Part shown: piece by piece, positions 10,690 through 64,000 of the stretch | Position numbering within the stretch: the stretch's first letter is position 1 | Layout: each line of letters opens with the position of its first letter | NCBI GenBank assembly: GCA_964507955.1 | Contig: CAZDRR010000001.1 | Span: 344 to 64,343, forward strand | Reading direction: 5' to 3' | DNA from: an uncultured Candidatus Saccharibacteria bacterium | Lineage (GTDB): Bacteria > Patescibacteriota > Minisyncoccia > Phycocordibacterales > JAACPR01 | DNA: 64,000 nucleotides | Program-made: the position numbers and the translations under genes | The notes under the pieces: model-generated | The model's database searches: none | Seen by the model: the letters and a program-made list of their open reading frames with translations, nothing else | Told to the model about the DNA's origin: nothing

Positions 10690-10698
10690 GGAGAATAA

Positions 10699-12252: not shown

Positions 12253-12270
12253 TCTCAATAAACTACGACT

Positions 12271-12870: not shown

Positions 12871-12884
12871 TACCTTATAACTAG

Positions 12885-47003: not shown

Positions 47004-47852
47004 GTGGACGTATTATTCATTTCAGATTTTAATTTAGAACATAACTCTGGCGGTGCGCAGGTAAGCAATGACGCTATTATTCGTGCAGGACGAGAACGAG
47101 GATTGTCTATTACAGAATTTAATCATGATACAAGTTCTTTAAAATTAATGTATCGGTATGATTTGTTGATTAGTTCCAATTTGGAAGTTTTGAGTCATCG
47201 TTCTGATTATATATTTGATAGGATTATTAATCACCCAAACCATATACGATTAGAACACGATTCCTGTAGTTATCTGCCTGCGGATAAACGTCGTAAACTG
47301 TTTTCTTCGACAAAGAAAAATTTCTTTTTATCGCAGTTTCATCTGGATTTCTTTAAAGAAGCATATGGTGATTATTTCGAGAATGTAGAAATAAACTTTG
47401 ATCCTATTGATACTAAAATTTTTTATCCAAGTTCCAATAAAAAGCGAAAGTATGATATTGTTTATTGCGGATTCTTGCATGAGCTAAAAGGAGCATATAA
47501 TCTCATTCATACTGCGGTTTTCAATCCCCAAAGGAAATTTGATGTTTTTGGATGGAGCGACAATGAGAGATTGATAAAGGAGTTGCAACAATATCCAAAT
47601 ATAGAATTACATCAACCCGTCCCTTTAAATGAAGTCGGAGAGATTTATAGAAATGCAAAATTTATTTTCCATGATCCAGTTGTTAACGAACCATTTTGTA
47701 GAATGGTTGGTGAGGCACTGATTTGTGGTTGCGAATTGATGGGCAACGGAGATAAAATTGGCAGTTATCAGGAATTTTACAAATTAGGGAGTGACGAATT
47801 CCGCGCACAAACAGAGAAAGCACAACACACGTTTTGGGATAAAATTTTATGA
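47004..47852 (+). CDS. GT-B glycosyltransferase (GT4-like)
   Basis: C-domain EPFCRMVGEALICGCELMGNGD matches the GT4 E-x7-E donor-binding region; GTG start per track. Confidence 0.6.
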   Translation: MDVLFISDFNLEHNSGGAQVSNDAIIRAGRERGLSITEFNHDTSSLKLMYRYDLLISSNLEVLSHRSDYIFDRIINHPNHIRLEHDSCSYLPADKRRKLFSSTKKNFFLSQFHLDFFKEAYGDYFENVEINFDPIDTKIFYPSSNKKRKYDIVYCGFLHELKGAYNLIHTAVFNPQRKFDVFGWSDNERLIKELQQYPNIELHQPVPLNEVGEIYRNAKFIFHDPVVNEPFCRMVGEALICGCELMGNGDKIGSYQEFYKLGSDEFRAQTEKAQHTFWDKIL

Positions 47853-48580
47853 AATCAGTTTCCGCAATTATTAATTGTTTTCAACGCCCACACGCTTTAA
47901 GAAGTCAATTTGAAGCGATAGAATCTCAATCTATCAAGCCGAAAGAGATTATGATTTGGCAAAATGCCCCAATGAATGGAGCGCAATTTGATTATTCTTT
48001 TTTAAATAAATCAATTATTAGCTTAAATAATTATAATTATGGAGTATGGGCTCGATTCGCATTTGCTTTAAATTCTCATTCTGATTATATTTGTATATTT
48101 GATGACGATACTATTCCAAACGAAAATTGGTTTGAAAATTGTTTAGAACAAATTGAACAAAATGGGAATGGTCTTTATGGAACTATTGGAGTAACATTTA
48201 ACGATTTAGATTATCGTTCTTATATTCGTCATGGTTGGGCGAATCCAAATAATAAGGTTGAGCAAGTAGATATTGTAGGACATTCTTGGTTCTTCCATAG
48301 AGATTTATTATCTGCATTTTGGAGAGAAACAGATTTGCCACTTTCCTATTTGTGTGGTGAAGACATGCATTTTTCATATTCAATTCAGAAATATCTTGGA
48401 TTAAATACTTTTGTGCCTCCTCATCCGATAGAAGATTTGTCTTTATGGGGTAGCCGACCCCAATCAGCGATGGAATTAGGCGTTGATAATAATGCTATTT
48501 CTGTGAATTTTCATTCACAAATTTTTGGAGAATCTTTAAAGCATTATCATAAAAAAGGCTTTAAATTATTAAATTTATGA
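47849..48580 (+). CDS. GT-A fold glycosyltransferase (GT2-like)
   Basis: N-terminal Rossmann-like SAIINCFQRP, DxD-type motif FDDDTI; 243 aa. Confidence 0.6.
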   Translation: MKSVSAIINCFQRPHALRSQFEAIESQSIKPKEIMIWQNAPMNGAQFDYSFLNKSIISLNNYNYGVWARFAFALNSHSDYICIFDDDTIPNENWFENCLEQIEQNGNGLYGTIGVTFNDLDYRSYIRHGWANPNNKVEQVDIVGHSWFFHRDLLSAFWRETDLPLSYLCGEDMHFSYSIQKYLGLNTFVPPHPIEDLSLWGSRPQSAMELGVDNNAISVNFHSQIFGESLKHYHKKGFKLLNL

Positions 48581-49584
48581 AAAAAATACTTGTAATATAT
48601 GGGACTCGCCCAGAATATTTAAAAGTTAAAAATTTCTTGAAAAAAAATGACGTTTTTGACATAAAAAGTTTACATATTAAACAACACTCTAATATCATTA
48701 ATTTTGGCGATCCCGATTATTTAATAGAAATTGAAAATAAAAATATAGATAGGTTAAACAATATTTTTAGTGAAATTTTTTTAAAATTACCAGAAATTAT
48801 TAAAGACTTTGATTATATTGTTATTCAGGGAGATACGGCATCTGTTATGGCTTCTGCTGTTTGCGCTTTTAATTTGAAGAAAAAAATTATTTATATTGAA
48901 TCAGGATTAAGAACTTGGGATTTGGATAATCCTTTTCCAGAAGAGGGATATAGACAAATGGTTGCGCGTATTTCATATATAAATTTTTGTCCGACAGAAC
49001 GTTCTAATTTAAATTTAATTAAAGAAAATATTAACCAAAATTGTTTTGCTGTAGGCAATACGTCTTTAGATAATTTATTGAATTTAAAAGAAAAATGCTC
49101 TTATCAGGACAAGGTTTTAATTACTTTACATAGAAATGAAAATTTAAATATTTTATCAGAATGGTTGTCCATAATAGATCAATTTGCAAGAGAACATCCA
49201 GAATTAATGTTTATTTTTCCAGCGCATTTAAATCCTATTGTGCAAACAGCGGCGTCTAAAACAAAATATTTAAAAATAATTAAACCTTTAGAACACGAAG
49301 ATCTTTTAGATATTTTAAAAGATGCAAAATTCGTTATTACTGATTCTGGAGGAATCCAAGAAGAGGCTTGTTTTTTAAATAAAAAAATTATTGTATGTCG
49401 TAAAACAACAGAACGTCCAGAAGGCATTTCGACTGGACATATAAAAATTGCAGAAGATCCTTCTAAATTGAAAAATCTATTAGAAGAAGTAAATACGAAT
49501 TTTATAATAGATGGATCATGCCCATATGGAGACGGGCAATCTACCCAGCGAATTTTACGAATATTAGCAAATGAAAGACTTTAA
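48577..49584 (+). CDS. UDP-N-acetylglucosamine 2-epimerase family enzyme (WecB/NeuC/CapG-like)
   Basis: Signature motifs GTRPE (N-terminus), VIQGDT, DSGGIQEE, TERPE. Confidence 0.8.
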   Translation: MKKILVIYGTRPEYLKVKNFLKKNDVFDIKSLHIKQHSNIINFGDPDYLIEIENKNIDRLNNIFSEIFLKLPEIIKDFDYIVIQGDTASVMASAVCAFNLKKKIIYIESGLRTWDLDNPFPEEGYRQMVARISYINFCPTERSNLNLIKENINQNCFAVGNTSLDNLLNLKEKCSYQDKVLITLHRNENLNILSEWLSIIDQFAREHPELMFIFPAHLNPIVQTAASKTKYLKIIKPLEHEDLLDILKDAKFVITDSGGIQEEACFLNKKIIVCRKTTERPEGISTGHIKIAEDPSKLKNLLEEVNTNFIIDGSCPYGDGQSTQRILRILANERL

Positions 49585-50263
49585 ACAAGAATTATTAATA
49601 ATGCATGATAGACTTATAAAAGGAGAGTCGTTTGCATTTTCTAAATATGCGGATGGGGAATGGGCCGCGATGTTAAATTTACCTTTAGATAATAGAGAAT
49701 TTAAAAACGAAAATTCTTTCGAAACTTCTCGCAAAGAGTTAATTGAATCTTTTAGATTTAAACACCCAAACTATTTTGTTGGAATTTCTTGTGAGTGTTG
49801 TCAAGGAGAAAACCATTTTCGAATGAAAGAATTTTCAACACAACCTATTGAAAATTTAACTTATGCGAATTTATTTGTTAATAGCAATTATCCGATTTAT
49901 AAACAATTATTTCTTCCAGAATATGAAAAAAGAGATGTTCATTTAGTGTGCAATAAATTATCGAAAATAGAAAATTTACCTTTTGTGCCAGAAGAAACAT
50001 ATTTTGTTGGATATAATGCATGGGTAGAAGACCACGATCTTATTAAAAAAATACAAGATAAGAATTTATCGGATAAATTATTTTTATTTTGTTGCGGGCC
50101 ATTCGGTAATTTATTAGCCCACCAACTATTTTCGTCAAATCAAAAAAATATATATTTAGACATTGGATCAACATTAAATCCGTGGTTACAATCAGAAGGA
50201 TTTAAAAGAGATTATTATTCTAATGGATTCTACGCTGGTCGAAAATGTTTTTGGAGGGAATAA
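49571..50263 (+). CDS. hypothetical protein, possible GT-D/DUF1792-like glycosyltransferase
   Basis: 230 aa; N-terminal FSKYADGEWAAM (DxE-type metal motif); weak. Confidence 0.3.
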   Translation: MKDFKQELLIMHDRLIKGESFAFSKYADGEWAAMLNLPLDNREFKNENSFETSRKELIESFRFKHPNYFVGISCECCQGENHFRMKEFSTQPIENLTYANLFVNSNYPIYKQLFLPEYEKRDVHLVCNKLSKIENLPFVPEETYFVGYNAWVEDHDLIKKIQDKNLSDKLFLFCCGPFGNLLAHQLFSSNQKNIYLDIGSTLNPWLQSEGFKRDYYSNGFYAGRKCFWRE

Positions 50264-50265
50264 CA

Positions 50266-51117
50266 ATGATACAAAAAAATAAACGATACTTAATTACTGG
50301 AGGAACTGGATTTTTGGGAGAGGCTTTAATTGCTCGACTACAAAAATTCGGATGCACAATAAGAATTTTGGCAAGAAATGAGGGAAAGCTAATAGCTTTA
50401 AAACAAAAATATCCAAATTTAGAAATTCATACAGGAGATATTTCAGATCCTTTTGAAGTAAAACAAGCAATGAAGGATGTCGATGGAGTTTTCCATCTAG
50501 CAGCTTCAAAACACGTTGGATTAGCAGAAACATTTGTTAGAGAATGCGTTAAGTCTAATACTATAGGATCATTAAATATATTAGAAAATTCATTGAATCA
50601 AAAATTAGATTTTGTTATCGGAATTTCGACAGATAAAGCCGCCCAAGTAGCAGGGGTTTATGGAGCTTCAAAACTTTTAATGGAGCGTTTATTTAAACAG
50701 TTTGAGGAATTAAATCCTCTTTGTAAATATAGAATTGTTCGATATGGTAACGTTTTATATTCTACAGGTTCGGTTTTGTGTAAATGGAAAGAATTAATTC
50801 AATCAGGACAACCATGTGCAGTTTCAGATTTAAATGCTACTAGATTTTATTGGACAGTAGAACAGGCAATTGAGTTAATTTTTGAATGTTTATCCAAAGC
50901 AGAAAATGCTTCCCCTTTTGTTCCTCAAATGAAGTCTATTAGAATCAAAGATTTATTAGAAGCAATGTATGAAAAATATGGCAATGGATTTCAGTTAAAT
51001 CCAATTGTTTATGGATTACAACAAGGGGAAAATTTACACGAAAGGATTTTGGAGGATGGACCTTATTCCAACGAAGTTCCCTTATATAGCAAGAAAGAAA
51101 TTTTAGAACTGATATGA
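50266..51117 (+). CDS. UDP-GlcNAc 4,6-dehydratase, PseB/CapE/FlaA1-like SDR
   Basis: TGGTGFLG NAD motif; ISTDKAAQVAGVYGASK (YxxxK); RYGNVLYSTGSVLCKWKELIQSGQPCAVSDLNATRF closely parallels PseB RYGNVMASRGSVIPLFIEQIKANQPLTITDPNMTRF; start moved to ATG 50266 with GGAGGG SD. Confidence 0.8.
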   Translation: MIQKNKRYLITGGTGFLGEALIARLQKFGCTIRILARNEGKLIALKQKYPNLEIHTGDISDPFEVKQAMKDVDGVFHLAASKHVGLAETFVRECVKSNTIGSLNILENSLNQKLDFVIGISTDKAAQVAGVYGASKLLMERLFKQFEELNPLCKYRIVRYGNVLYSTGSVLCKWKELIQSGQPCAVSDLNATRFYWTVEQAIELIFECLSKAENASPFVPQMKSIRIKDLLEAMYEKYGNGFQLNPIVYGLQQGENLHERILEDGPYSNEVPLYSKKEILELI

Positions 51118-51788
51118 AAGAACTAACTTTATTAATTGGTAGTTGCGATAACTATGCTTCTTTATGGCCTATTTGCGCAGATTTAATTCAAAAATATTGG
51201 GAGATTGATTGCGATAAAATTATAGTTGCAGAAAATTATTCACAATCATGTCCACAAGAATTTAAGTTAATTAATGCTGGGTGCAGAACTTGGACGGAAA
51301 GAATGTTATATGCATTAGATTCTGTTAAAACTCCGTATGTTTTTTTTATATTAGAAGATTATTTTTTAAGCGAAAGAGTTTCTAAGGAAATGATTGATCA
51401 ATTTTTATTTTTTCTGAAAATTCACGAAGCTAATAAAATAGCTTTAACAACAATTCCAGAAGGATTTTATAAAACATCGAAATTTTATGAAAATTTATAT
51501 GATAATATTTATAAAATGGATGACGATAGCGATTACTTAACAAGTGTTCAACCTGCAATTTGGAAGACTTCTTTTTTAAAAGAATTATTACAACAAGATA
51601 ATTGGAATCCATGGGAATTTGAAATTATTGGTAGCGCAAGGATAAAAGGGAAGGATAATAAAATTTTTATCAAGAAAAAAAATGACCCAATTTATTTTAA
51701 TGCAGTTAGAAAAGGAGGTTATTTTTCAGAAGGTTATTTTGAATTTATAGAGAAAGAATTGAATAAAGAAGTTGACAAGAATCATTGA
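51114..51788 (+). CDS. hypothetical protein in sugar-nucleotide operon
   Basis: 224-aa coupled ORF; no recognisable motif. Confidence 0.4.
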   Translation: MKELTLLIGSCDNYASLWPICADLIQKYWEIDCDKIIVAENYSQSCPQEFKLINAGCRTWTERMLYALDSVKTPYVFFILEDYFLSERVSKEMIDQFLFFLKIHEANKIALTTIPEGFYKTSKFYENLYDNIYKMDDDSDYLTSVQPAIWKTSFLKELLQQDNWNPWEFEIIGSARIKGKDNKIFIKKKNDPIYFNAVRKGGYFSEGYFEFIEKELNKEVDKNH

Positions 51789-52879
51789 ATACGCATAATA
51801 TGAACGCGAATATGAAAAAAGTGCTAATAACAGGAGTCACAGGAATGGACGGGAGCCTTATGGCAGATTATTTATTAAAGCATACAGATAATTTTATTGT
51901 TGGAGGTATTCGTAGATTGAGTGTGCCGAATCATAAAAATATAGAACATCTCATTGGGCATCCTAGATTTAAACTTATTGATTTAGATATTACAGATGCG
52001 ATTAATGTTGCGTTAGTGATTAAAGAAGAACGACCAGATTATTTTATTAATTTTGCGGCGAATTCTTTTGTAGGCAATAGTTGGACGATGCCAGTTAATC
52101 ATTTTACGACGAATTGTTTATCGGTGCTTTATCAATTAGAAGCTATTCGCAAATATGCTCCAAACTGTCATTATTATAATGCAGGCTCTTCTGAGGAGTT
52201 TGGTGATGTTGTAACTGTTCCTCAGTCAGAAAGTCATCCTTTACGCCCACGAAGTCCTTATGGGGCAGCTAAGGCTTCTTCAAGACATCTTGTGAAGGTT
52301 TATAGAGAATCTTATAATCTTTACGCTATTCAGGGTTGGTTATTTAACCACGAAGGAATTCGCAGGGGAGAAGAATTTGTCACCCGCAAAATTACCAAAG
52401 GCGTTGCAAGAATTAAACATGCCATTGAAAATAAACTTCCATTTGAACCTCTTGAACTCGGTAATCTTGATTCAACAAGGGATTGGAGCGATGCAGAAGA
52501 TTTTGTAGATGGTATATGGAAAATGCTCAATCAAGAATTTCCAAAAGAATATGTTCTATCGTCTAATGAGACCCATTCTATTAAAGAATTTGTAGAATTA
52601 GCTTTTTTATCGGCTGGGATTCATGGTGTTTGGGTTGGAGAAAAATTAGATACATTATATCTTCTTCCAAATGCTGACGCGGAATATTGTGAATTTGCAT
52701 CAATTAAATTAGTAAAAATTAATGAAAAATTTTATCGCCCAGCAGAAGTAGAAATTCTTTATGGGGATTCAAGTAAAGCACGGACAGAATTAAATTGGCA
52801 ACCAAAAATTTCTTTTAAAAACCTTGTAAAAAAAATGGTTGAAAACGATATAAAAGAATATGCCAAAACCCATTCGTAA
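51785..52879 (+). CDS. gmd: GDP-mannose 4,6-dehydratase
   Basis: ITGVTGMDGSLMADYLL, SPYGAAK, LFNHEGIRRGEEFVTRKIT, YFRPAEVE and the C-terminus align closely with E. coli Gmd. Confidence 0.92.
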   Translation: MNTHNMNANMKKVLITGVTGMDGSLMADYLLKHTDNFIVGGIRRLSVPNHKNIEHLIGHPRFKLIDLDITDAINVALVIKEERPDYFINFAANSFVGNSWTMPVNHFTTNCLSVLYQLEAIRKYAPNCHYYNAGSSEEFGDVVTVPQSESHPLRPRSPYGAAKASSRHLVKVYRESYNLYAIQGWLFNHEGIRRGEEFVTRKITKGVARIKHAIENKLPFEPLELGNLDSTRDWSDAEDFVDGIWKMLNQEFPKEYVLSSNETHSIKEFVELAFLSAGIHGVWVGEKLDTLYLLPNADAEYCEFASIKLVKINEKFYRPAEVEILYGDSSKARTELNWQPKISFKNLVKKMVENDIKEYAKTHS

Positions 52880-53210
52880 ATTTTCTAAAGAAAGAAAAAT
52901 TTTCATTCAGAGAATGCTTCAAGGCCGTCCAAAGAATTTCGCTTTGGAAATGAAAACGGCTTATGAGCTTTTCGAAATGCACGAATTTGACTTGAATTTT
53001 TTCGAGAAAGTTTCTCCTCCTCCATTTAAAATCAATAGCCTTTTATGGTTTAAAACCAGAGATGGTTTAAAGTTCTTGGCTAAGAAAAAAATGGAAATGA
53101 AGTTCCAAGTGCCTGAATATGAAAAAGTTGTTGAAATTGGGGAGAAATGCGGAGAAGATACATTGACTGAAATCAAACCACGAACAATCAGAAAATTTTT
53201 AAATGGCTAG
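52860..53210 (+). CDS. hypothetical protein
   Basis: 116-aa ORF. Confidence 0.4.
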   Translation: MPKPIRKFSKERKIFIQRMLQGRPKNFALEMKTAYELFEMHEFDLNFFEKVSPPPFKINSLLWFKTRDGLKFLAKKKMEMKFQVPEYEKVVEIGEKCGEDTLTEIKPRTIRKFLNG

Positions 53211-54363
53211 AACAAAAAATAATCCAACAACTCCAGAACAAGATAAAAAAGAAAAGCCTGATGATCAAGCTTTTGCTTCGTCTTTCTTTAATTCTAATAA
53301 AGAATTCCACTATAATCTTGTGGAAGAAGCGGAAGATTTTACCGTATCAAGCGGCTCATTAAAATTTGACTATATTCTTTCTGGAGGTTTTAAAAAAGGA
53401 CTATTCCGTTTTACAGGCGTAACAGAAGGCGGCAAAACTTCATGTGCTTTGACAGTTTTGAAAAACATGCTGGATACCGTTCCTAATTCCAAAGGGATTT
53501 ATGTCAAGGCGGAAGGACGTTTGCGTAAAGAGATTCAGGAGAGATCTGGTATTAAATTTGTTTTCTCTCCCGAAGAATGGGAAGTAGGAACTTGTCTTGT
53601 TTTCGAATGTAATGTTTTCGAAACAGTATTTGATTTTTTTAGGGGTTTGTTAAAAAATAATCCTAAGAAAATTCGTTTCGGTTTTATTGTTGATTCTGCT
53701 GATGGATTAATTCCAAAAGGCGATTTGGAAAAATCTTCGGAAGAGGCTGGGAAAGTTGCGGGTGGAGCTTTATTAAGTTCTGACTTCTTCAAGAGAGTTT
53801 CTTTGGGAATGTCTAAATTCGGGCATTTAGGAATCTTTTTATCTCAAGTTCGGGCTAGAGTCGAAGTGAATCAATACGCTCCAAAAGATCAAAACAACAG
53901 GACTTCTGCGAGTGGCGGCAACGCCCATTTGCATTATCCAGATTGGATTATCGAATTCAAGAGACCGAATAAGGACGACTTTATTGCAAAAAATCCAGAA
54001 GCACCTTTATCTTTAGATAATCCTCCTATTGGTCATAAGGCAAAAATTCTTATCTGCAAATCTCCTAATGAAACTACTGGTATGATTTTGGATTATCCAA
54101 TCAAACATGGTAGAACTGGAGGTCGTTCTGTTTGGATCGAAAGAGAAATTATTGATCTATTATTAATGTGGGAATTTTTCACTAAGAAAGGATCATGGTA
54201 TTCTTTTGACGAAGAGATTCAAGCTCACTGTCAAGAATTCGGTTATGATTTGTCGAACGCCATTCAAGGTATTCCAAACTTATACAAACTCTTGGAAGAA
54301 GACGCAAAATTAGCAGAAATTTTGAAGAACTTTGTAAAAGTTAACTGTTTAGTAATGAAATGA
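53203..54363 (+). CDS. RecA/UvsX-family recombinase
   Basis: Walker A GVTEGGKTS, Walker B FIVDSADGL, GGNAHLHY region comparable to RecA GGNALKFY. Confidence 0.75.
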   Translation: MARTKNNPTTPEQDKKEKPDDQAFASSFFNSNKEFHYNLVEEAEDFTVSSGSLKFDYILSGGFKKGLFRFTGVTEGGKTSCALTVLKNMLDTVPNSKGIYVKAEGRLRKEIQERSGIKFVFSPEEWEVGTCLVFECNVFETVFDFFRGLLKNNPKKIRFGFIVDSADGLIPKGDLEKSSEEAGKVAGGALLSSDFFKRVSLGMSKFGHLGIFLSQVRARVEVNQYAPKDQNNRTSASGGNAHLHYPDWIIEFKRPNKDDFIAKNPEAPLSLDNPPIGHKAKILICKSPNETTGMILDYPIKHGRTGGRSVWIEREIIDLLLMWEFFTKKGSWYSFDEEIQAHCQEFGYDLSNAIQGIPNLYKLLEEDAKLAEILKNFVKVNCLVMK

Positions 54364-54773
54364 TTTTTAAATCAGCAACATCTAATAAAAATGTTAAACT
54401 CAGAAATGCCACTCGATATTTAATAAAATGGAATGGTAAATGTAGGAGTAAAATACAAGCCAAGGTAAAGGACAAACTTTACCCATTTTGGTTTGCAGAT
54501 ATCGTTTTTGAAGAGTTGCCAGTTGTAGGAACCCGATTGACGTTAGATTTTTATAACGCTAATAAGCAAATTGCTATTGAAGTAGATGGTTCCCAGCATT
54601 ATAAATTCAATAAATTTTTCCACAATAACTCCCGTATAAAATTTTTAAATCAACTTGAGAGAGACGATATCAAAGAAAAATTCTGTGAGAAAAACAATAT
54701 CAAGCTTGTTAGAATTTTGGATACAGATGTGCTTGACAAAGAGCTATTTAGGAAGTTAGGATTAATCAAATGA
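54360..54773 (+). CDS. DUF559/Vsr-like PD-(D/E)xK endonuclease domain protein
   Basis: LDFYNANKQIAIEVDGSQHY...ERDDIKEKFCEKNNIKLVRI matches the DUF559 pattern; inserted between recA-like and dnaB-like genes. Confidence 0.55.
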   Translation: MIFKSATSNKNVKLRNATRYLIKWNGKCRSKIQAKVKDKLYPFWFADIVFEELPVVGTRLTLDFYNANKQIAIEVDGSQHYKFNKFFHNNSRIKFLNQLERDDIKEKFCEKNNIKLVRILDTDVLDKELFRKLGLIK

Positions 54774-54988
54774 AGGCAACAAATAATATTCCAGAAACCT
54801 TATTAAGTAAGGTCTTTGACGCAACAGGCTCCGCTTCTGGCGGCAATAGAGGTTATATTATTGCCATGGTTAATTCCAATGGAGACCCGACAATCATTTC
54901 TCGATTTGAAAATTCTTGTGTGAGCCTTGCTTTGAGAAAAGCCCTTGAATTATTTGTTGACACAGATAATCAACAATTAAACCAATGA
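54770..54988 (+). CDS. hypothetical small protein
   Basis: 72-aa coupled ORF. Confidence 0.35.
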   Translation: MKATNNIPETLLSKVFDATGSASGGNRGYIIAMVNSNGDPTIISRFENSCVSLALRKALELFVDTDNQQLNQ

Positions 54989-56541
54989 TTTATTCTTACG
55001 AGTTGGAAAAAAAAGTGCTGTCTGGTATTTTACAGCACCAACATAAATGGGCGGAAATATCCCTTTTTTTAAAGGAGTCGGATTTTTATTCTGACGATTC
55101 TAAAGTAAACGTTTCCATTTTTCGTTTGTTAAAAAATGCATTGGATAATAAAGAAGTTGTTGATGAAACGATTTTAACACAAAGAATTCAACAATTAAAA
55201 GTTAGTTTTCCAGATTGTATTGATATCGGAGAATATATCTATTCTTTGGCGTTTTATAAAATTTCGGAAGATGTTTTTATTTCATCAATCAAAGAACTCA
55301 AAAAGTTTTCTGCCCGAAGAGGAATCTACATTGCTGCTAAAGACGTAGCTTCTTTTGTCAAAAAAACAGATCCAAATTTATCCTATTCTTCTATTGTCGA
55401 ACAGGCGGATAAATTATACAACGACGCAATTCAAAAATTTGAGTCTTTAGATTCTGGCCCCATTAATTTGTTTGAAGTAATGGAGGAAATGATTGAAGAA
55501 CGCGGGAATAATCCTATACAAGAGTTTGGATTAATGGGTCCTCATCCACGCATTAATCAAATTTATGGCTCTTTGCTTAGAGGAGGGAATATTACGGTTA
55601 TTGTAGCTCGTTCTGGAGTGGGCAAGAGTCAATTTGCGATGGATTTTTCTACCAAAGTTGCAGCGATGAATAACGATATTCCCGTGCTTCATTTGGATAA
55701 CGGAGAAATGAGCGAAGAAGAGCTTATTTTCCGTCAGATGGCCGCTATGACAGGTTTACCCGTTCACTTGTTCGAAACAGGTTTATGGCGCTCTTGCACA
55801 TACAAAGACATGTCTTCTAGGGAAATTGTTGACTTAGTTCGTCATACATTTTCAAAGATTAAAAACATGAAGTTCTTTTACGTTAATGTCGCGGGCATGA
55901 CGGTTGAGGAAATGGTAGCTTTGACAAAGAGATTTTACTTTTCCAAGGTTGGACGCGGGAACAAAATGATTCTCAGTTTCGACTATATTAAGAGTGATTT
56001 TAGCAATATAGGTAAAGCAGACGGATGGCAACAAGTAGCCTTTATGGTTAATAAATTTAAACAATGTATCCATCGGGAACTTTGTTTTGATGGTGATCGT
56101 CCCGTGGCTATGATTACATCCGTTCAGTCAAATAGGCTGGGTATTACGACGAATAGGGCTGCTGAAAATATTGTTGACGATGAAAGCGTTGTTAGTTTAT
56201 CAGATGCTATTACTCAATTTTGTTCTCATTTGTTTTTGTTGCGCAAAAAAGTAATGGAGGAGATTCAGGAGGAGGGAACAAAGTTTGGCACCCATAAATT
56301 TATCAATTTAAAATCTAGGCATTTGGGCAAAGACCCAATGAGGGCTATTAATCCCGTCACGATGCCTGATGGTTCTAAAAAGAACAATTATATCAATCTG
56401 GATTTCAATAACTTTTCTATTACAGAGAAAGGCGATCTTGTTGATTGGGTTGAAACAATGAATGGTGGAGGCTCAACAGAATTGGAGACTTTTGATGCGG
56501 AATTTGTTGATGATATTCCAGAATTATTAACTAATGGTTGA
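54985..56541 (+). CDS. DnaB-like replicative helicase
   Basis: DnaB-type N-terminal domain; RecA-fold ATPase with Walker A VIVARSGVGKSQ and Walker B LHLDNGEM. Confidence 0.75.
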   Translation: MIYSYELEKKVLSGILQHQHKWAEISLFLKESDFYSDDSKVNVSIFRLLKNALDNKEVVDETILTQRIQQLKVSFPDCIDIGEYIYSLAFYKISEDVFISSIKELKKFSARRGIYIAAKDVASFVKKTDPNLSYSSIVEQADKLYNDAIQKFESLDSGPINLFEVMEEMIEERGNNPIQEFGLMGPHPRINQIYGSLLRGGNITVIVARSGVGKSQFAMDFSTKVAAMNNDIPVLHLDNGEMSEEELIFRQMAAMTGLPVHLFETGLWRSCTYKDMSSREIVDLVRHTFSKIKNMKFFYVNVAGMTVEEMVALTKRFYFSKVGRGNKMILSFDYIKSDFSNIGKADGWQQVAFMVNKFKQCIHRELCFDGDRPVAMITSVQSNRLGITTNRAAENIVDDESVVSLSDAITQFCSHLFLLRKKVMEEIQEEGTKFGTHKFINLKSRHLGKDPMRAINPVTMPDGSKKNNYINLDFNNFSITEKGDLVDWVETMNGGGSTELETFDAEFVDDIPELLTNG

Positions 56542-57586
56542 TTATAGAAATATTTTAGAGAATTTGGGCTACAAGCTAATAGATCGAGGATCATATTGGC
56601 ATACAGCCGCTATTTTTCGTAATGGAGATAATCCAACAGCAATTCAAATTTATAAAGATACTGGAGTATGGCGAGATTTTGTAGAAGATTCTCCTTTTGC
56701 TCCATTTGAGGCTTTGGTAAAAAAAACTTTAAATACGAATGATTCATCGCTCATTAAAAGCATATTAAATAATAATAGCAACGATATAGAAGCCGTTTCC
56801 TCGAAAAAAAAATTATTGAAAGAAGAGCGCGTTTTCGAAAGTTCTTGTTTGAAAAGACTATTGCCACATTACGACTTTTATACTTCTCCAGAGAGAAATA
56901 TTTCAATCCAAACGCTTGAAGATTATCAATGCGGATTGGCTACTTCTGGTAAATTTTATCAAAGATTAGTTTTTCCTATTTTCAGATATGACGGCAAAAT
57001 ACATGGGTTCTCTGGTAGAAAAATTCTCGAAAGCAACAACAAAAGCAAGTGGTTTCATTCTGGCAAAGTTGCTAATTGGGTATATCCAACTTACACCACT
57101 CCTTTTACAAGTTCGGCTATTTTAAATAAGAAAAGAGTATTTCTTGTAGAATCCATTGGAGATTCGTTGGCGATGTATGATAAAGGAATTCAAGAAAATC
57201 TTGTTTCTTTTGGTTTATCTATTTCTCCAAAATTAGCTGCTCATTTAGGATCATTAGAAGTTGAGAAGATTGTTTTCGCATTCAATAACGATTTTGAAGC
57301 AGAAAAAAATAGGGGTGTAATCGCCGCTGTTAAAAATATCATCAAACTTTCTAGTCACTTGGATTTCACAAAAATTTATATATGTCCTCCTCATAAAAGT
57401 GATTTTGGCAAAATGACGGATCAAAAAGATTTTGAACTTTATCTAAAATATTTTGATAATATGACTCACGAAGAGTCTATGCGCAAAGTAGTCGATCAGG
57501 CGGAAGCGTTAGGAAATAATGTTTCTGACGATTTTAAAATATTAAGAAGAAAGTTCAACAAACTCTATTCATTCCATTATGAATAA
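56534..57586 (+). CDS. DnaG-like primase (Toprim) with degenerate zinc-binding domain
   Basis: Toprim-like FLVESIGDSLAMYDKG; N-terminus follows the DnaG zinc-domain pattern but with SYWH...TGVW replacing CxxH...CxxC. Confidence 0.5.
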   Translation: MVDYRNILENLGYKLIDRGSYWHTAAIFRNGDNPTAIQIYKDTGVWRDFVEDSPFAPFEALVKKTLNTNDSSLIKSILNNNSNDIEAVSSKKKLLKEERVFESSCLKRLLPHYDFYTSPERNISIQTLEDYQCGLATSGKFYQRLVFPIFRYDGKIHGFSGRKILESNNKSKWFHSGKVANWVYPTYTTPFTSSAILNKKRVFLVESIGDSLAMYDKGIQENLVSFGLSISPKLAAHLGSLEVEKIVFAFNNDFEAEKNRGVIAAVKNIIKLSSHLDFTKIYICPPHKSDFGKMTDQKDFELYLKYFDNMTHEESMRKVVDQAEALGNNVSDDFKILRRKFNKLYSFHYE

Positions 57587-58619
57587 ACCATTATCAGCTT
57601 CCAGAATCAAAGTCTTACAAACTTGCTCTTATTTATATTGGGCGAAGTATCATTTAAAACTTCCCGATAAGGCTAACGAGGGTAGTTTGAGAGGCAACAT
57701 TTGTCATACTGTTTTTGAAGTTCTTGGCGATCCTCGCCATAGGAAACATTATGATGCAATTGTCTCTTTGCAAGATGTTGCTGCTTCACAAGCAATAGAG
57801 AGATTGATTTTGTCTTATGCCAAAAAGAATGGCATAGATTCTTTCGAGAATTTGGATTTAATCAACAAGATGATCTTGGAAGGATTGAATTATGATTTTT
57901 TTGGAACCAAAAATGGGAAACCCACATATGGATTAAGCGAATGCGATTTCGATATTGATGTGAATACTGATAAGAAAAATTATCGCATTTTGGGTTTCAT
58001 AGATAAATTGTTCTTGTTCAAAAAGAAAAAACTAGCAATTATTCGTGACTTTAAAACATCAAAGGGAATTTTTTCTGGAGAAGAAGTCGAGGATAATTTG
58101 CAAAATTTAATGTATTGCCTTGCAGTAAAATACTTGTATCCAGAATATTTACAGAGAAAAATGGAATTTCTGTTTTTGAAATTTGATTTGAATAACGGAG
58201 GCTTGCTGGAAATGGCAGAGGTTTCAACAGATGAATTGGAAGGTTTCGAAATTTTCTTGACTCAGGTTCAAAAAGTTATCAATAATTTCAACGAAAAAGC
58301 CGCATTGGCAGATATGGCGTATCACAAAGGCTTTGGACAAGGATTTACTGGAAGGACAGTATGCGGACAAGGAATGAACCCAAATGCTCTTAAAAAGGAT
58401 GGAACGCCCATGTGGGCATGTGCGGCAAAATGGCCTTTCGACTATTATGTATTATTGGATGAAAAGAAAACTGTGATAGGCTCTTCGTTAGATAAAATTG
58501 ATTTGGAGCAAAAACAAACAAAGTATCCAAATTCTAAAATTGAAAAACGCAAATATGAAGGATGCCCAGCTTGGAACGTAAAGAAGAAAATTCTTGACAA
58601 ATACGATCCATTTTTATAA
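57579..58619 (+). CDS. Cas4/RecB-family PD-(D/E)xK exonuclease with Fe-S cysteine set
   Basis: IIRDFKTSK and QNLMYC (QxxxY) nuclease motifs; one N-terminal Cys plus three C-terminal Cys. Confidence 0.55.
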   Translation: MNKPLSASRIKVLQTCSYLYWAKYHLKLPDKANEGSLRGNICHTVFEVLGDPRHRKHYDAIVSLQDVAASQAIERLILSYAKKNGIDSFENLDLINKMILEGLNYDFFGTKNGKPTYGLSECDFDIDVNTDKKNYRILGFIDKLFLFKKKKLAIIRDFKTSKGIFSGEEVEDNLQNLMYCLAVKYLYPEYLQRKMEFLFLKFDLNNGGLLEMAEVSTDELEGFEIFLTQVQKVINNFNEKAALADMAYHKGFGQGFTGRTVCGQGMNPNALKKDGTPMWACAAKWPFDYYVLLDEKKTVIGSSLDKIDLEQKQTKYPNSKIEKRKYEGCPAWNVKKKILDKYDPFL

Positions 58620-59316
58620 AAAAAGAATAGTGATTCCATTATTTAAAACTCATTACAGCGTTGGAAAGAGTATTTTAACTCCTTCTAATATTTTTTCATT
58701 TATAGATGATTCTCCGCAGGTTGTTTTTGTTGAGGATAGTTTTTGTGGTTTCCGTAATATTTTCAATGAGGCTACGAAACATAAAAAGCAATTGATTTTT
58801 GGAATTCGGCTACCAGTTATCCAAAATTCTTTGGAAGAACGTCCGAGTAAACTTGTTTTTTTTGCAAAAAACGATGAAGGAGTTGGGGATTGCAAACAAC
58901 TTTTTTCAAAAACTTATTGTTCTGATGAAAAAGTTTTAAAATTAGGGGATTTAAAACCCAAGAATCTTAAAAACATCAAAATAGGAGTGCCTTTTTATGA
59001 CTCTTATGTTTACAATAACGTATTTTATTTTGGGTTGTCGGAATTGCATTTGAAAAAATTTGATCATTTTTACTTTGAAGAAAGCAACAATCATCCTTTT
59101 GATTTTCAAATTTCGAATGCCCTAAAAGAAGTTTCAGAAGAAACAGTCTTGGCGAAAACAATCTTGTATAAGAATTACGATGATTTTGATGCCTTTACAA
59201 TGTATAAGGCAATTTGTAATAGAGGTCACGGGAAATCGCCAACGCATTCAGCGCCGAATATCAATCATCTATGTTCCAACGAATTTTGCTGGGAATCTTT
59301 CAAATTAAATAAATGA
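58594..59316 (+). CDS. degenerate PHP-domain protein (detached N-terminal domain of Pol III alpha)
   Basis: LFKTHYSVGKSIL, FVEDSFCGFRNIFNEATKHKKQLIFGIRL and LVFFAKNDEGVGDCKQLFS parallel DnaE PHP-domain segments but lack the metal-ligand histidines. Confidence 0.45.
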   Translation: MTNTIHFYKKRIVIPLFKTHYSVGKSILTPSNIFSFIDDSPQVVFVEDSFCGFRNIFNEATKHKKQLIFGIRLPVIQNSLEERPSKLVFFAKNDEGVGDCKQLFSKTYCSDEKVLKLGDLKPKNLKNIKIGVPFYDSYVYNNVFYFGLSELHLKKFDHFYFEESNNHPFDFQISNALKEVSEETVLAKTILYKNYDDFDAFTMYKAICNRGHGKSPTHSAPNINHLCSNEFCWESFKLNK

Positions 59317-59978
59317 GCTTACCATTTGACCAAAAATACATAACCTTTGATACAGAAACAGAAGGCTTGAATTTACATAATTCTCGTCCATGGCAATTGG
59401 CGTGGAATCGAGCAAAAGGAAACAAGTCTCTTAATGCAGAAAATAGATTTTTATATTGGTCTGATTTAAAAGTATCAAGAGACGCGGCGAGGATCACAGG
59501 ATTTGATATAGATTTTTATGAAAATATTGGCAGGGATAATCATAAATACAAAATTTTTGGCAAGGAGTTTAAAGCGGAAAATCCAGAGGTCGTTTTAAAC
59601 GATTTTGAAAAAGAGTTGTATGATCCCAAGAACATTATTGTTGGGCAAAACTTATTAGGATACGACGTTTATATTATTGCCACTTTACAACGTATTTGTG
59701 GCAAAAAACAGGATTTCTCTTATTTATCCCGCATTTATGATACGAGACCGCTGGGTATGGCTTATAGAGAAGGATTGACAAAACCAAAGAATTGCGACAT
59801 GCTTTCTTGGCAATATAAAATATTAAATGACGCATCTTTGAAAGCAAAAGTTTCACAACTCGCACAATTGAAATTTTTAGGCATTGAATTTGATGAAACG
59901 AAACTTCATGATGCCTTATATGATAATGAAATGTGCTTCCAAATTTTTCAAGCACATAAAAAGAATTTAAGCCTATGA
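59313..59978 (+). CDS. DnaQ-like DEDDh 3'-5' proofreading exonuclease
   Basis: Exo I FDTETEG, Exo II GQNLLGYDV, Exo III HDALYDNEM; ATGA-coupled to both neighbours. Confidence 0.8.
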   Translation: MSLPFDQKYITFDTETEGLNLHNSRPWQLAWNRAKGNKSLNAENRFLYWSDLKVSRDAARITGFDIDFYENIGRDNHKYKIFGKEFKAENPEVVLNDFEKELYDPKNIIVGQNLLGYDVYIIATLQRICGKKQDFSYLSRIYDTRPLGMAYREGLTKPKNCDMLSWQYKILNDASLKAKVSQLAQLKFLGIEFDETKLHDALYDNEMCFQIFQAHKKNLSL

Positions 59979-62545
59979 TTTTTCATGATGTAAAACCATA
60001 TGTCGAACCAGAGCCAGTAGGCGTCGAACTACCTAAAATTTTTGTTACAGAACAAGAATTAAAAGAAATTGACGACAAACTTACCGTCAACAGCAGCAGT
60101 TTTGATCTTTTGAAGTCGCTGGTCAGAAAGGGATTGAAAGACAAGGGAATTGTTAATCGAGACGATAAACAAACATATTTTGATAGGGCAAAACAAGAAC
60201 TGGATACTTTCGAAGAATTGGGATTCACAGACTATGTTCTTTTAAATTGGGACATTTTGAATTTTTGTCATAAGAACAATATCCCTACAGGCGCGGGCAG
60301 AGGTTCTGCGGCAGGCAGTTTAGTTCTTTTTTTATTAGGGGTTACAAATATAGATCCGCTTGAACATAATTTATTCTTCGAAAGATTCGTTTCCAAATCC
60401 CGTGCGAAGAAAATCCTTTCCAAATCAGGAAAACAATTTCTTGTTGGAAGCTTGTTACCCGACGTTGATTCAGACATTTCATATGATCAACGCTCCAAAG
60501 TTATCGCTTATATTGAGGAAAAACACAGAGGAAAGACTTCTAAAATTTTGACCTTTAATACTTTCAGTTCCAAACTTTGCATTAGAGAAACAGCGAAGTA
60601 TTTTTGTGAAGCTTCTGAATTTGAAGCCAGTGAAGTTAGCGACATGATTCCGAAATTACACGGAGTCGTTGCTGATTTGGAAGATGCATATGAAGAAGTT
60701 GAATCTTTTAAAAATTGGGCAAACCGTTATCCAGACGCTTATAAAAATGCTTTAAAAATAGAGAACTTGAATAAAAATACGGGAGTTCATCCTTCTGGAA
60801 TTGCTATTTGCTCCGATACAATTTCGAATATTATTCCTCTTCAAAAAACAAAGGATGGAGATTTGGTGTCGGGTTATGATATGAATGGAGTATCGGATTT
60901 GATGGTTAAATTCGATATCTTGGGACTAAGAACACTTACTGTCGCCCAAAATACCTGTAATCGTCTAGGCATCTCTCTGGACGATATTCCATATAATGAT
61001 GAGTTCATTTATAAAGCGTTACAGGATTTCAAACATCCGATGGGATTATTCCAAATTTCTGCGGATACAAACTTTAGGGTAGCGCAAGCAATTAAGCCAA
61101 GCAACTTACAAGAATTGTCTGATGTTATCGCTCTTGCAAGGCCCGGAGCCTTGCAATTCCTTACAGACTATAAAGAGAACAAACAGACCTTAAAAGAACT
61201 TGGTATGCATGAAGAGTTAGATCATATTCTTTCATGGTCAAAGAATGTTATCTTATATCAGGAACAATTGATGATGATCGCCAACAAGGTTTTCGGATTC
61301 TCTTTAGAAGAAGCTGAAATCTTGAGAAGAATTGTTGGTAAGAAAAAACGTGATGAGATGCCCCCATGGAAAGAAAAAATTTATAATGCGGGCAAAGAAA
61401 GAGGATTGGATACAAAAATCAGCGATTTCTATTGGTCCGCTCTTGAAGCCTCTGCGGATTATTCTTTCAATTTAAGTCATAGCGTTAGTTATGCGACTTT
61501 GGCGGCGAAAACCGTATATTTGAAATACAAGTATCCTCAAGAATTCTTTATTTCTCTATTAGAATCTGCTGAATTCGAACCAGATCCATTAGCGGAAATT
61601 TCCCTTATCCAAAAAGAATTACAGGATTTTGGTATTAAACTTCTTCCACCTTCCCTTGAAGTATCCGATATGACATTTTCGGTTGAAAATGAAAATATTC
61701 GTTATGGATTAAGAACTATTAAAGGTATCTCCTCCAAGTCATTAGCTTCATTGGTTGATTTTCGAGGCAAGAAATTTGCAAATAAGTATGAAGTGTTTTC
61801 TGCGGCCAAGAATGCAGGTATCAACATTTCTGTTCTCGCGGCATTGATTCAGGCTGGAACAATGGATCAGTCTGGACAGAATAGAAGTCGCATGGTTCTG
61901 GAGGCACAAGCATTTAACCTTTTAACAGATAGGGAAAAGCGTAATTTTATGCTTATCGGAGAAAGATTTGGATTTGACCTGTTGAATACAATTGCTGATG
62001 TGGTGGACAAACAAATTATTGGAGACGATAATCGGGTGATTATGTCCAATAAAAGGTTGGAAACCTTCAAACGCGATTTCCAAAAATATCTGACAATTTA
62101 TCGCCAAAATCGCAAGTATGATAAATTTGCAAAATGGTGGTATGAGAACACATTATTAGGGTATAGTTATTCGATTCTTTTAAAAGATTGTTTTGTTGAT
62201 ACGTTTGGTGTTTTGGATAACATTAAGGATTTGGAAGAAGCTGACGATAGATCGACATTTAAAGTTGCTGGTCAAGTTGAAGATTTCTTTGTTAAAACGA
62301 GCGCGGCTGGAAATAAATATATGTCCATTCTTCTTTCAGACAATACAGCGACCCAAAAATTTCTTTTTATGGATAATCGCAGGGCAGCTAAATTAACAGA
62401 ATTTTTAGAGTTTAATAAACTGATCAAAAAGGATATAATCGTATTGACAGGGACAAAAAGTTCGGATAGCTTATTTGTGAATTCTATAGAAAAAATAGAC
62501 TGTTCAATTTACATGAAACCGAAAGATATCAAAGATGAATCTTGA
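59975..62545 (+). CDS. dnaE: DNA polymerase III alpha catalytic core (lacking PHP domain)
   Basis: GAGRGSAAGSLV, PDVDSDI catalytic aspartates, FERF, C-terminal OB-fold; begins where DnaE thumb/palm starts. Confidence 0.85.
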   Translation: MIFHDVKPYVEPEPVGVELPKIFVTEQELKEIDDKLTVNSSSFDLLKSLVRKGLKDKGIVNRDDKQTYFDRAKQELDTFEELGFTDYVLLNWDILNFCHKNNIPTGAGRGSAAGSLVLFLLGVTNIDPLEHNLFFERFVSKSRAKKILSKSGKQFLVGSLLPDVDSDISYDQRSKVIAYIEEKHRGKTSKILTFNTFSSKLCIRETAKYFCEASEFEASEVSDMIPKLHGVVADLEDAYEEVESFKNWANRYPDAYKNALKIENLNKNTGVHPSGIAICSDTISNIIPLQKTKDGDLVSGYDMNGVSDLMVKFDILGLRTLTVAQNTCNRLGISLDDIPYNDEFIYKALQDFKHPMGLFQISADTNFRVAQAIKPSNLQELSDVIALARPGALQFLTDYKENKQTLKELGMHEELDHILSWSKNVILYQEQLMMIANKVFGFSLEEAEILRRIVGKKKRDEMPPWKEKIYNAGKERGLDTKISDFYWSALEASADYSFNLSHSVSYATLAAKTVYLKYKYPQEFFISLLESAEFEPDPLAEISLIQKELQDFGIKLLPPSLEVSDMTFSVENENIRYGLRTIKGISSKSLASLVDFRGKKFANKYEVFSAAKNAGINISVLAALIQAGTMDQSGQNRSRMVLEAQAFNLLTDREKRNFMLIGERFGFDLLNTIADVVDKQIIGDDNRVIMSNKRLETFKRDFQKYLTIYRQNRKYDKFAKWWYENTLLGYSYSILLKDCFVDTFGVLDNIKDLEEADDRSTFKVAGQVEDFFVKTSAAGNKYMSILLSDNTATQKFLFMDNRRAAKLTEFLEFNKLIKKDIIVLTGTKSSDSLFVNSIEKIDCSIYMKPKDIKDES

Positions 62546-64000
62546 TTATTATACCTCTCAATTACAATTTGTTATTAAAGAAAGCGAAAGGTTCGCTCAA
62601 AACAATGGATTTAAATATGTAACAGAAGATATTCTGTTTTATTCTTTAATATCTTCTCATAGTTCAACTTGTATTTTAGCATTTGAGAAGGCCCAAATTA
62701 ATATAGCGGCATTAGCGGGAGAAGCGATTAAATCAATTATTCTTCCTAAAAAACATCAAGAATTTTGTGGTTTTTCCAAAAAGGCAAAATCTATATTAAA
62801 ATTTGCGGAAGCTATCGCTGCGAGTCAATTCCGTCAGGAATATTTGTCTCCAGAAATTGTGCTGTTAGCTTTCTTTTCTCAAGAGCATTTGCCGAAAGCT
62901 TTGAAGAATTTTTTCAAAGTGAGTTTAACAGAAGAAATCTTGGAAAACCCTCAAGTGTTGTCTTTATTTGAAGGCGTTGCAATTGTGGTAAAAGATTTAG
63001 ATTTCTCAATTAAGGAAGAAGTTGAGCCAGAAAATGAGGATGTTAATAACATCCCTATGTTTGAATTGAATCCGATTCTTTCTCAATTTTCGGATAATTT
63101 GAATTTACAAGCAGCTATTGGGTTGTTTGATACCATTGTGGATTTTGATTCCAAGATAGATGAAATTGCGACAATTTTATGCCGCAAAAAGAAACCGAAT
63201 GCGATTTTGGTAGGTCCTGCGGGGACGGGAAAAACAAGTTTAGTGCAAGGTTTGGCTACAAAAATTGTAAAGGGAGAAGCTCCTGATTTACTTTTGAATA
63301 AGGTAATTTACTCAGTAAACTTATCTTCTATGGTGGCAGGGACACAATATCGCGGACAATTCGAAAAGCGCCTTGAAGATTTTATTAATGAAGCCAAGAA
63401 ATATTCCAACTTGATTCTTTTTATTGATGAAATTCACACGCTTGTAGGCGCGGGAGGAGGATCTTCATCTTCTCTTGAAGCCTCCAATATATTAAAACCT
63501 GAATTGGCAAGAGGAAGCATTTCTTGTATTGGAGCGACAACAATTAACGAATATACGAATACTATTAAAAAAGATTCAGCATTGGATCGTCGTTTTGAAA
63601 AAGTAATTGTCAGGGAACCGTCTAAGTTTCAAATGGAGAAAATTCTTCCTGAAATTTTGAATTATTATGAAGAGTTTCACGGCGTTGAATATACAGAAGA
63701 ATTTGTAAATAACATCATTTATTTTTGTGAACAGTTCTTGCCAAACAGAAGATATCCAGATAAGGCGATTGATGTTATAGACCACTGCGGAGCGCAAGCC
63801 AAAGTTAAGTTTTGGGAAATGGATGCTGAATTGAAAGATTACCAAAAGCATATTCGCGAAGGTATTGAAGAAACTGGTGAGGTTGATCAAAAAGCTTTGG
63901 ATCTTTTAAATAAAAAAATAGATGTGTGGGAAGGCAAACTGTTGTCGGAAACCGCTAAAGTTCAATTAAGCCATTTGAAAGCATTCTTCCTTAATAAAGG
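62534..64000 (+). CDS. ClpA/ClpC-like AAA+ unfoldase (5' partial, runs off window end)
   Basis: Hand-translated open frame with no stop by 64000: Clp_N-like N-domain, Walker A ILVGPAGTGKT, Walker B LFIDEIHTLVGAG, sensor/arginine-finger region ALDRRFEKVIVREPS, DKAIDVIDHCGAQ. Confidence 0.75.

Follow-up and report, generated by a model that had tools for sequence, protein, structure and literature searches.

Can the PHP domain of a C-family DNA polymerase be encoded apart from the polymerase to which it belongs? This question is raised by a 64,000-nucleotide (nt) stretch of DNA (contig CAZDRR010000001.1, positions 344 to 64,343; here called the window), in which the domains of a DNA polymerase III (Pol III) core are distributed over three adjacent genes. 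For all members of the C family, it has been stated that one polypeptide holds PHP, palm, thumb, and fingers (PMC3666897), and viral C-family enzymes have been described as following the E. coli domain order, starting from an N-terminal PHP (PMC3201878). The window polymerase departs from this in one respect that has been taken to define the family: PHP is absent from its polypeptide. We propose that the products of the three genes are parts of a single DnaE-type replicase core, which would be assembled noncovalently, a reading to which we give a probability of about 0.72; gene structure, homology, fold, motifs, conservation, and the fusion states of relatives are shown here, and the assembly is inferred from them. 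The features concerned are as follows.

58630-59316, + strand: stand-alone PHP-domain protein of 228 amino acids, predicted to be catalytically degenerate (family-level PF02811, phrog_405, and fold matches)
59313-59978, + strand: DnaQ-like DEDDh 3'-5' exonuclease of 221 amino acids (phrog_192 and DEDDh motifs; the PF00929 match is weak)
59975-62545, + strand: DnaE-type Pol III alpha without PHP, 856 amino acids (PF07733, PF17657, PF14579, phmmer, and phrog_405)
59313-59316, + strand: ATGA start/stop overlap of the PHP and exonuclease genes (read directly; same in two independent assemblies)
59975-59978, + strand: ATGA start/stop overlap of the exonuclease and polymerase genes (read directly; same in two independent assemblies)

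An earlier note on this DNA held that the 856-amino-acid DnaE homologue lacks PHP and starts at the thumb/palm, and the Pfam scan of the protein agrees. PF07733 was matched from residue 45 to residue 317 (E = 7.8e-58), PF17657 was matched with an E value of 1.5e-31, and the (HhH)2/beta-binding domain (PF14579) was matched at residues 553 to 639 (E = 1.4e-16). No PHP match was found in the scan, and the protein begins approximately 45 amino acids before PF07733, at the PHP/palm linker. Using phmmer, the polymerase was aligned from residue 66 onward with residues 319 to 899 of E. coli DnaE (E = 1e-67) and residues 381 to 956 of Taq DnaE (E = 8.6e-85), while PolC was matched at an E value of 5e-4 only. 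By these sequence comparisons the polymerase is classed as DnaE-type and not PolC-type. Alignment to the Taq and E. coli motifs showed that the catalytic motifs PDVDSD (residues 162 to 167) and KFDILGL (residues 312 to 318) are intact and that the three catalytic aspartates, D163, D165, and D314, are kept (D401, D403, and D555 in E. coli). In the proposed core, the 856-amino-acid protein would supply the polymerase active site. It is not alone in its domain content, as all 120 of the closest polymerase relatives listed are 779 to 875 amino acids long and are without PF02811. At the C terminus, the OB family PF01336 was not matched in the window polymerase; phrog_405 aligns up to residue 848, and PF01336 is present at the corresponding C-terminal place in two relatives (P0330 and P0380). 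A C-terminal OB region is probable in the window polymerase as judged by this alignment. A search for a sliding-clamp binding motif gave loose regular-expression matches only, and no clamp gene was found among the window open reading frames (ORFs) scanned.

The missing domain was sought two genes upstream by the earlier note, which assigned PHP to the ORF at 58594 to 59316. The homology stands, whereas the start does not: GTG at 58630 (228 amino acids), 10 nt after the upstream stop, is better supported by the family alignment and by the database gene call (P0001) than TTG at 58594 (240 amino acids). On its own, the ORF gave a weak match to PF02811 that, at 18 bits (E = 0.0038), did not reach the gathering score. 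At the family level, 22 of 27 members matched PF02811, with a best E value of 1.1e-10. The full-length phage DnaE profile phrog_405 aligned with the PHP ORF at positions 50 to 292 and with the polymerase at positions 333 to 1091. The two proteins are complementary on this profile and therefore represent successive segments of a single ancestral chain.

An AlphaFold (AF2) model of the PHP protein, built from the family alignment, has a mean predicted local distance difference test score (pLDDT) of 85.6 and contains seven barrel strands. When the model was searched with Foldseek, the best matches among solved structures were the PHP domains of DnaE (E. coli 2hnh, E = 9e-11), and the PHP domains of Taq, M. 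tuberculosis, and PolC were also matched. As modeled, the small ORF has the (beta/alpha)7 barrel fold of polymerase PHP domains. Fold comparison was needed for this assignment, as searches of Protein Data Bank sequences with the ORF (phmmer) and with the family profile (hmmsearch) found no DnaE, and hhalign of the family against residues 1 to 350 of E. coli DnaE aligned residues 9 to 99 only (E = 0.0012). The family is large, with more than 150 proteins, and all 120 homologues listed are 180 to 255 amino acids long. At least 565 IMG/VR contigs encode a PHP relative, and a profile search of 1.84 billion cluster representatives returned 518 clusters at 50% identity; among the best 150 of these 518, 132 are of 300 amino acids or fewer. 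No strong stand-alone match was found in BFVD.

PHP domains are characterized by nine metal-ligand positions, at which H, H, D, H, E, H, C/H, D/N, and H are canonical (Barros et al., PMC3666897, Table 1). E. coli has R10, H12, D19, F44, D69, H83, G134, D201, and R203 at those positions (PMC3666897, Table 1). In the window PHP, positions 1 to 3 are occupied by L4, K6, and K13; these were taken from hhalign only, because MAFFT with E. coli and the phage MA9V-3 misaligned the N terminus. Positions 4 to 9 in the MAFFT alignment are E35 or S37, R60, K74, a gap, T, and L, with positions 7 to 9 based on sequence alignment only. None of the nine positions is canonical, in agreement with the claim that the ORF has lost its histidine metal ligands, and the sequence marks the PHP protein as catalytically dead or degenerate. 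R60 and K74 are nearly invariant and are like the Arg-for-metal substitutions described for E. coli. Since fused relatives carry the same degenerate ligand signature, the degeneration is older than the split. Loss of ligands has not been accompanied by loss of constraint: the family has 25 invariant columns and a mean column identity of 57%, the pattern of strong purifying selection on the sequence, and many of the invariant columns are polar residues at strand ends (VED, PFYDS, and HPFD).

As previously claimed, the gene between those for PHP and polymerase encodes a DEDDh exonuclease. The ExoI (DxE), ExoII (D), and ExoIII (Hx4D) motifs are all present, and the five catalytic residues (D13, E15, D118, H199, and D204) show no variation across 59 unique relatives or in the fused forms. 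The protein matched phrog_192, "DNA polymerase exonuclease subunit" (E = 2.2e-10), and had no sequence match among solved epsilon chains.

It has been reported that the integrity of PHP sets the stability and activity of Pol III and that PHP is a structural element (Barros et al., PMC3666897). Loss of PHP ligands has also been reported to co-occur with a separate proofreader, the DnaQ partner (PMC3666897, PMC12926913). A PHP without ligands next to an intact DEDDh exonuclease is consistent with both the published co-occurrence and the structural role. In the proposed core, the 228-amino-acid PHP protein would be a metal-free structural subunit docked against the palm and thumb, in the place taken up by the covalently linked PHP of all known Pol III alpha chains. 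Once docked, it would stabilize the polymerase and would probably help to hold the exonuclease. The 221-amino-acid exonuclease would be the proofreader, replacing what the dead PHP can no longer provide.

Both junctions between the three genes are 4-nt ATGA overlaps, as the earlier note had stated. A single-base insertion or deletion (indel) in such an overlap could fuse or split frames, and single-chain PHP-exonuclease-polymerase (PHP-Exo-Pol) relatives are known, so that the three ORFs could be sequencing or assembly errors in one dnaE-like gene. The chance of this is negligible. In two independent assemblies from other sequencing runs (L090 and L091), both junctions are identical to those of the window, with 0 mismatches over 1710 and 2561 nt. 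PHP, exonuclease, and polymerase ORFs occur in that order at 75 of the 75 loci with enough downstream sequence (83 loci were examined), where they come after DnaB and primase and mostly after a nuclease gene as well. The junction geometry differs among these relatives (ATGA, TAATG, or gaps of 67 to 74 nt), genes have been inserted at some junctions, and fused relatives carry real linkers of approximately 15 and 40 amino acids, not read-through of the overlap. The independent assemblies and the relatives thus agree that the boundaries are not indels, and the description of the locus as a modular replicase in three polypeptides is upheld.

Separate ORFs might nonetheless yield one polypeptide through programmed -1 frameshifting or split-intein trans-splicing. 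Each downstream ORF is in the -1 frame of the preceding ORF, an AAA AAG Lys-Lys pair is located 15 nt before the exonuclease stop, and polymerases of this family often contain inteins. However, the codons of the Lys-Lys pair show synonymous variation (AAGAAA, AAGAAG, and AGGAAA), which, together with the 67- to 74-nt gaps or whole inserted genes, leaves no conserved slippery site. A TAA in the exonuclease frame also stands immediately before the exonuclease ATG. The PHP and exonuclease ORFs are fully occupied by domains, and there is therefore no room for split-intein halves. We consider a recoded single chain very improbable.

The inference of stoichiometric co-translation from the ATGA overlaps fared less well. 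Overlaps of 4 nt account for 16 of the 49 same-strand junctions in the window, and overlaps of any length account for 32 of 49; the ATGA overlap is therefore the default packing of this genome and says little about stoichiometry. Relatives tolerate 0.7 to 3.4 kb of inserted genes between the three ORFs, and in one distant relative (L001) the exonuclease and polymerase genes are 3.4 kb apart, with eight small ORFs in the gap. The overlaps were rejected as a special coupling signal. They are compatible with coexpression and were given little weight.

Mobile elements were observed at the same junctions in relatives. Free-standing ORFs of 264 to 340 amino acids are located exactly at the PHP/exonuclease junction in L012 (9663-10685), L013 (9748-10662), and L024 (9749-10543), and these carry LAGLIDADG-like motifs (WFGFIAADGN ... 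GYFDGDG) of the homing-endonuclease type. Inteins interrupt the polymerase in P0266, P0277, and L024. The locus is a mobile-element hotspot, and mobile elements may have driven its fission and rearrangement.

Comparison with relatives, which the earlier note had called for, revealed a conserved split together with PHP-Pol, PHP-Exo-Pol, and PHP-Exo forms. Four PHP-Pol relatives (P0330, P0339, P0354, and P0380; 1129 to 1256 amino acids) are canonical PHP-Pol chains without an exonuclease domain. On both of the PHP-Pol contigs examined, the orthologous exonuclease gene is located just upstream, with one or two small ORFs between (E = 1e-50 and 1e-62 with the exonuclease hidden Markov model). P0266 and P0277 are single-chain PHP-Exo-Pol proteins, and a search with P0277 returned at least 30 PHP-Exo-Pol clusters of 1353 to 1914 amino acids, with a variable number of inteins, on contigs of up to 147 kb. 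The single chain P0416 is in exactly the same slot as the three window genes: DnaB, primase, nuclease, the fused gene, and Clp-like ATPase. PHP-Exo fusions were also found (P0323, P0336, and P0367). Taken together, the relatives cover all fusion states at this genomic position: PHP-Pol with an upstream exonuclease, PHP-Exo-Pol, PHP-Exo with a separate polymerase, and fully split. These fusion states argue for a physical association of PHP, exonuclease, and polymerase.

Further rearrangements were seen in single relatives. L092 (6001-12874) encodes a 465-amino-acid PHP-Exo fusion, then a Metallophos gene, and then a 271-amino-acid gene product weakly matching DNA-processing protein A (PF02481); its polymerase is split into 602- and 397-amino-acid parts with a 316-amino-acid ORF between them. 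Seven relatives of 406 to 472 amino acids (P0303, P0308, P0314, P0320, P0321, P0342, and P0343) have the same degenerate PHP followed by about 200 amino acids without a match to the exonuclease, to the polymerase, or in Pfam. In P0286 (366 amino acids), DUF4326 is fused in front of PHP.

The relationships among these forms were examined in a rough neighbor-joining distance tree, built from 781 columns of the polymerase region with 100 bootstraps. The sequences form one viral clade (96% support) in which the PHP-Pol forms are basal. The single-chain PHP-Exo-Pol clade is sister to the split clade (87 to 97%) with only 67% support. The probable history would begin with a phage PHP-Pol gene in which PHP was already degenerate and the cognate exonuclease gene was just upstream. 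A rearrangement would then have put the exonuclease between PHP and Pol; one sister lineage encodes the three as a single chain and the other as separate genes.

The packing of a fused chain was assessed in an AlphaFold (AF2) model of P0416 (residues 1 to 1190), for which the alignment included the three window proteins. The model has a pLDDT of 82 and a predicted template modeling score of 0.70, with low confidence at residues 254 to 261 and 469 to 484, which flank the exonuclease domain. Its target-normalized template modeling scores against whole DnaE chains are 0.75 (2hnh) and 0.76 (5lew), compared to 0.60 for PolC. The superposition of the model on DnaE chains points to canonical PHP-polymerase packing, with the exonuclease as a tethered excursion. 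The window proteins are equivalent to a P0416-type chain cut within its two linkers.

Several results weigh against a core of three docked subunits. No counterpart of the C-terminal PHP-binding segment of E. coli epsilon was found in the exonuclease, which ends approximately 17 amino acids after the ExoIII aspartate and carries no tail beyond the ExoIII helix, and no clear clamp-binding motif was found in it. The exonuclease domain in the P0416 model is only moderately confident (pLDDT of about 60 to 84). The genes are kilobases apart in some relatives, and tight coexpression is therefore not obligatory. Finally, the face of PHP that once held the active site has invariant polar residues (E35, D36, R60, K74, Y123-D124-S125, H155, and D158), which could mean that a ligand-binding or catalytic role has been kept.

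The first of these results would be expected if PHP and polymerase assemble and the exonuclease is not a stable subunit, proofreading in trans or having another DNA-processing role. The exonuclease lacks both the epsilon-like tether and a clear clamp-binding motif, other ORFs separate the exonuclease and polymerase genes in basal relatives as well as in L001, and a passage of PMC12926913 cites proofreading in trans for B. subtilis DnaE3. Nevertheless, the orthologous exonuclease gene adjoins the polymerase gene in every arrangement seen, and the exonuclease is covalently fused to PHP, or to PHP plus Pol, in several lineages. We regard an unattached exonuclease as unlikely.

The last result bears on the possibility that the stand-alone PHP has a new function, working on its own as an enzyme or a ligand-binding factor (in the handling of pyrophosphate or phosphoesters, for example), and is not a docked subunit. 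Together with E151 and N153, the invariant polar residues named above cluster where the barrel strands end; the metal-poor PHP domain of E. coli has been proposed to act as a pyrophosphatase (PMC4822814); and PHP has other fusion partners, namely, DUF4326 in P0286 and the domain of about 200 amino acids. These points are met by the finding that the PHP gene is always alongside a PHP-less polymerase gene in the loci examined, by the same degenerate signature in the PHP-Pol and PHP-Exo-Pol fusions of sister lineages, and by the canonical packing of PHP on the polymerase in the P0416 model. A PHP protein acting away from the polymerase is improbable on this evidence. A structural-subunit role and a new PHP function are not mutually exclusive, and the noncovalent DnaE-type core remains our preferred reading.

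The genes surrounding this core place it in a phage replication module. Replication genes from 54985 on form a tightly packed, operon-like module on the + strand, in the order DnaB, primase, nuclease, PHP, Exo, Pol, and Clp-like ATPase. The flanking members are as follows.

54985-56541, + strand: DnaB-like replicative helicase (PF03796 and PF00772), which opens the conserved replication module and has kept its synteny in 80 IMG/VR loci
56534-57586, + strand: DnaG-like primase (PF08275; Toprim matches weak), syntenic in relatives
57579-58619, + strand: PD-(D/E)XK nuclease directly upstream of the PHP gene (PF12705, E = 3.5e-16; phrog_69 exonuclease), syntenic in relatives
62535-64000, running off the window, + strand: ClpA/B-like AAA+ ATPase (Clp_N, AAA, and AAA_lid_9 matches)

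The Clp-like ATPase gene overlaps the polymerase stop by 11 nt, and its product is unlike a clamp loader in appearance. In split as well as fused lineages, it is the conserved neighbor 3' of the polymerase (L001, 15573 onward; L086, 11061-12569). An HNH homing-endonuclease-like gene (54360-54773; phrog_559 and phrog_9084) is located between the RecA/UvsX-like recombinase gene (53203-54363), with which it shares a 4-nt overlap, and DnaB.

The window encodes a large terminase, a 2073-amino-acid tape-measure protein, a ribonucleotide reductase, and a RecA/UvsX-like recombinase, and it is therefore part of a tailed-phage genome. Its GC content is approximately 35%, and no tRNA genes were found within the 64 kb. 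A 138,977-bp contig is on record with an identical PHP protein. We conclude that the source is an uncultured marine tailed phage. When 50,697 deposited phage genomes were searched by tblastn, no match to the PHP protein or the exonuclease protein was found. Large ORFs of the structural region (686, 517, 375, and 849 amino acids; within 8629-12252, 16996-18123, and 32753-35302) have no PHROG match, which is consistent with a phage lineage without cultured relatives. The GC content rises to 0.448 at 12001-14000 (approximately 0.35 elsewhere), coinciding with a 378-amino-acid + strand ORF (12885-14021) that has no PHROG match and may be the major capsid gene. A 357-amino-acid antisense ORF (12867-13940) overlaps it fully and is probably spurious. 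Downstream of the ribonucleotide reductase gene (44836-46839), a cluster of sugar/polysaccharide genes at 47004-52879 encodes two glycosyltransferases, a UDP-GlcNAc 2-epimerase, a Polysacc_synt_2-type dehydratase, and a nucleotide-sugar epimerase. This cluster may be an auxiliary module for surface glycans or DNA modification.

The main roles proposed for a catalytically dead PHP domain are structural stabilization, an epsilon-binding platform, and pyrophosphatase activity. A detached PHP subunit, together with its fused relatives, provides a ready-made system for examining the contribution of PHP to stability, activity, and proofreader recruitment. The same system could show how a PHP-exonuclease interface works without an epsilon tail and how PolC-like architectures evolve. 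The phages with a split replicase are an abundant uncultured marine clade, and members of the PHP family at present carry the label "hypothetical protein" or the wrong name "DNA polymerase III alpha subunit." Recognition of the family therefore improves the annotation of marine viromes.

Among known replicases, the E. coli Pol III core (DnaE1 alpha plus DnaQ epsilon) is similar in having a DnaE-type core in which a ligand-poor PHP with Arg/Lys substitutions is accompanied by a separate DEDDh proofreader (PMC3666897). It differs in that the E. coli PHP is in the alpha chain and keeps four ligands, whereas the window PHP is its own polypeptide with none. In addition, the window exonuclease is without the C-terminal PHP-binding segment, its gene is located between the PHP and polymerase genes, and no theta was identified.

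The earlier note saw in the locus an echo of PolC, and this comparison holds in part. The gene order of PHP, exonuclease, and polymerase is that of Firmicutes PolC, which also combines a DEDDh exonuclease with an often inactive PHP. The position of the exonuclease and the type of the polymerase do not correspond. PolC has its exonuclease embedded within the PHP domain itself (PMC3919608). The window PHP holds all seven barrel strands, and the exonuclease gene therefore follows the whole PHP, at the PHP/palm linker. The window polymerase is DnaE-like, without the PolC N-terminal domain or N-terminal OB fold, and there are three chains instead of one. The single-chain PHP-Exo-Pol relatives make the PolC echo more concrete but point to a convergent architecture. 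A more far-reaching proposal, which we hold tentatively and consider somewhat doubtful, is that the covalent PHP-palm link is dispensable, that the conserved polar cleft of the free PHP has a new job (docking a tail-less exonuclease or handling pyrophosphate), and that the series of fusion states records an independent, PolC-like origin from a DnaE ancestor.

Two other systems bring these modules together or apart in different ways. In the DnaE1 of Bacteroidetes that carries an exonuclease domain fused at its N terminus (Timinskas et al. 2014, PMC3919608), a DEDDh proofreader has likewise been brought into the neighborhood or chain of DnaE. The order there is Exo-PHP-Pol in one chain (PMC3919608), in contrast to PHP, Exo, and Pol in three genes in the window. 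Cellulophaga phage phiST also has a C-family polymerase spread over adjacent genes (gp044/gp045). Its cut is inside the palm, its first gene (525 amino acids) encodes PHP plus part of Pol3, and there is no exonuclease gene between the two. Split phage DnaE proteins occur elsewhere as PHROG families of DnaE fragments and as BFVD phage DnaE N-terminal fragments of 447 to 525 amino acids, and the cultured phages MA9V-3 and R12 have a full-length DnaE. No description of a split or stand-alone PHP in phage DnaE was found in the limited collection of literature searched.

Close counterparts are also the single chains P0416 and P0277 of sister uncultured phages, in which orthologous modules occur in the same order and in the same slot on contigs of approximately 140 kb. 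In those phages, the modules form one polypeptide of approximately 1354 amino acids (more with inteins) joined by flexible linkers, whereas the window encodes three polypeptides. What is new in the window is a domain fission in a well-known enzyme family, at a link that has been considered invariant.

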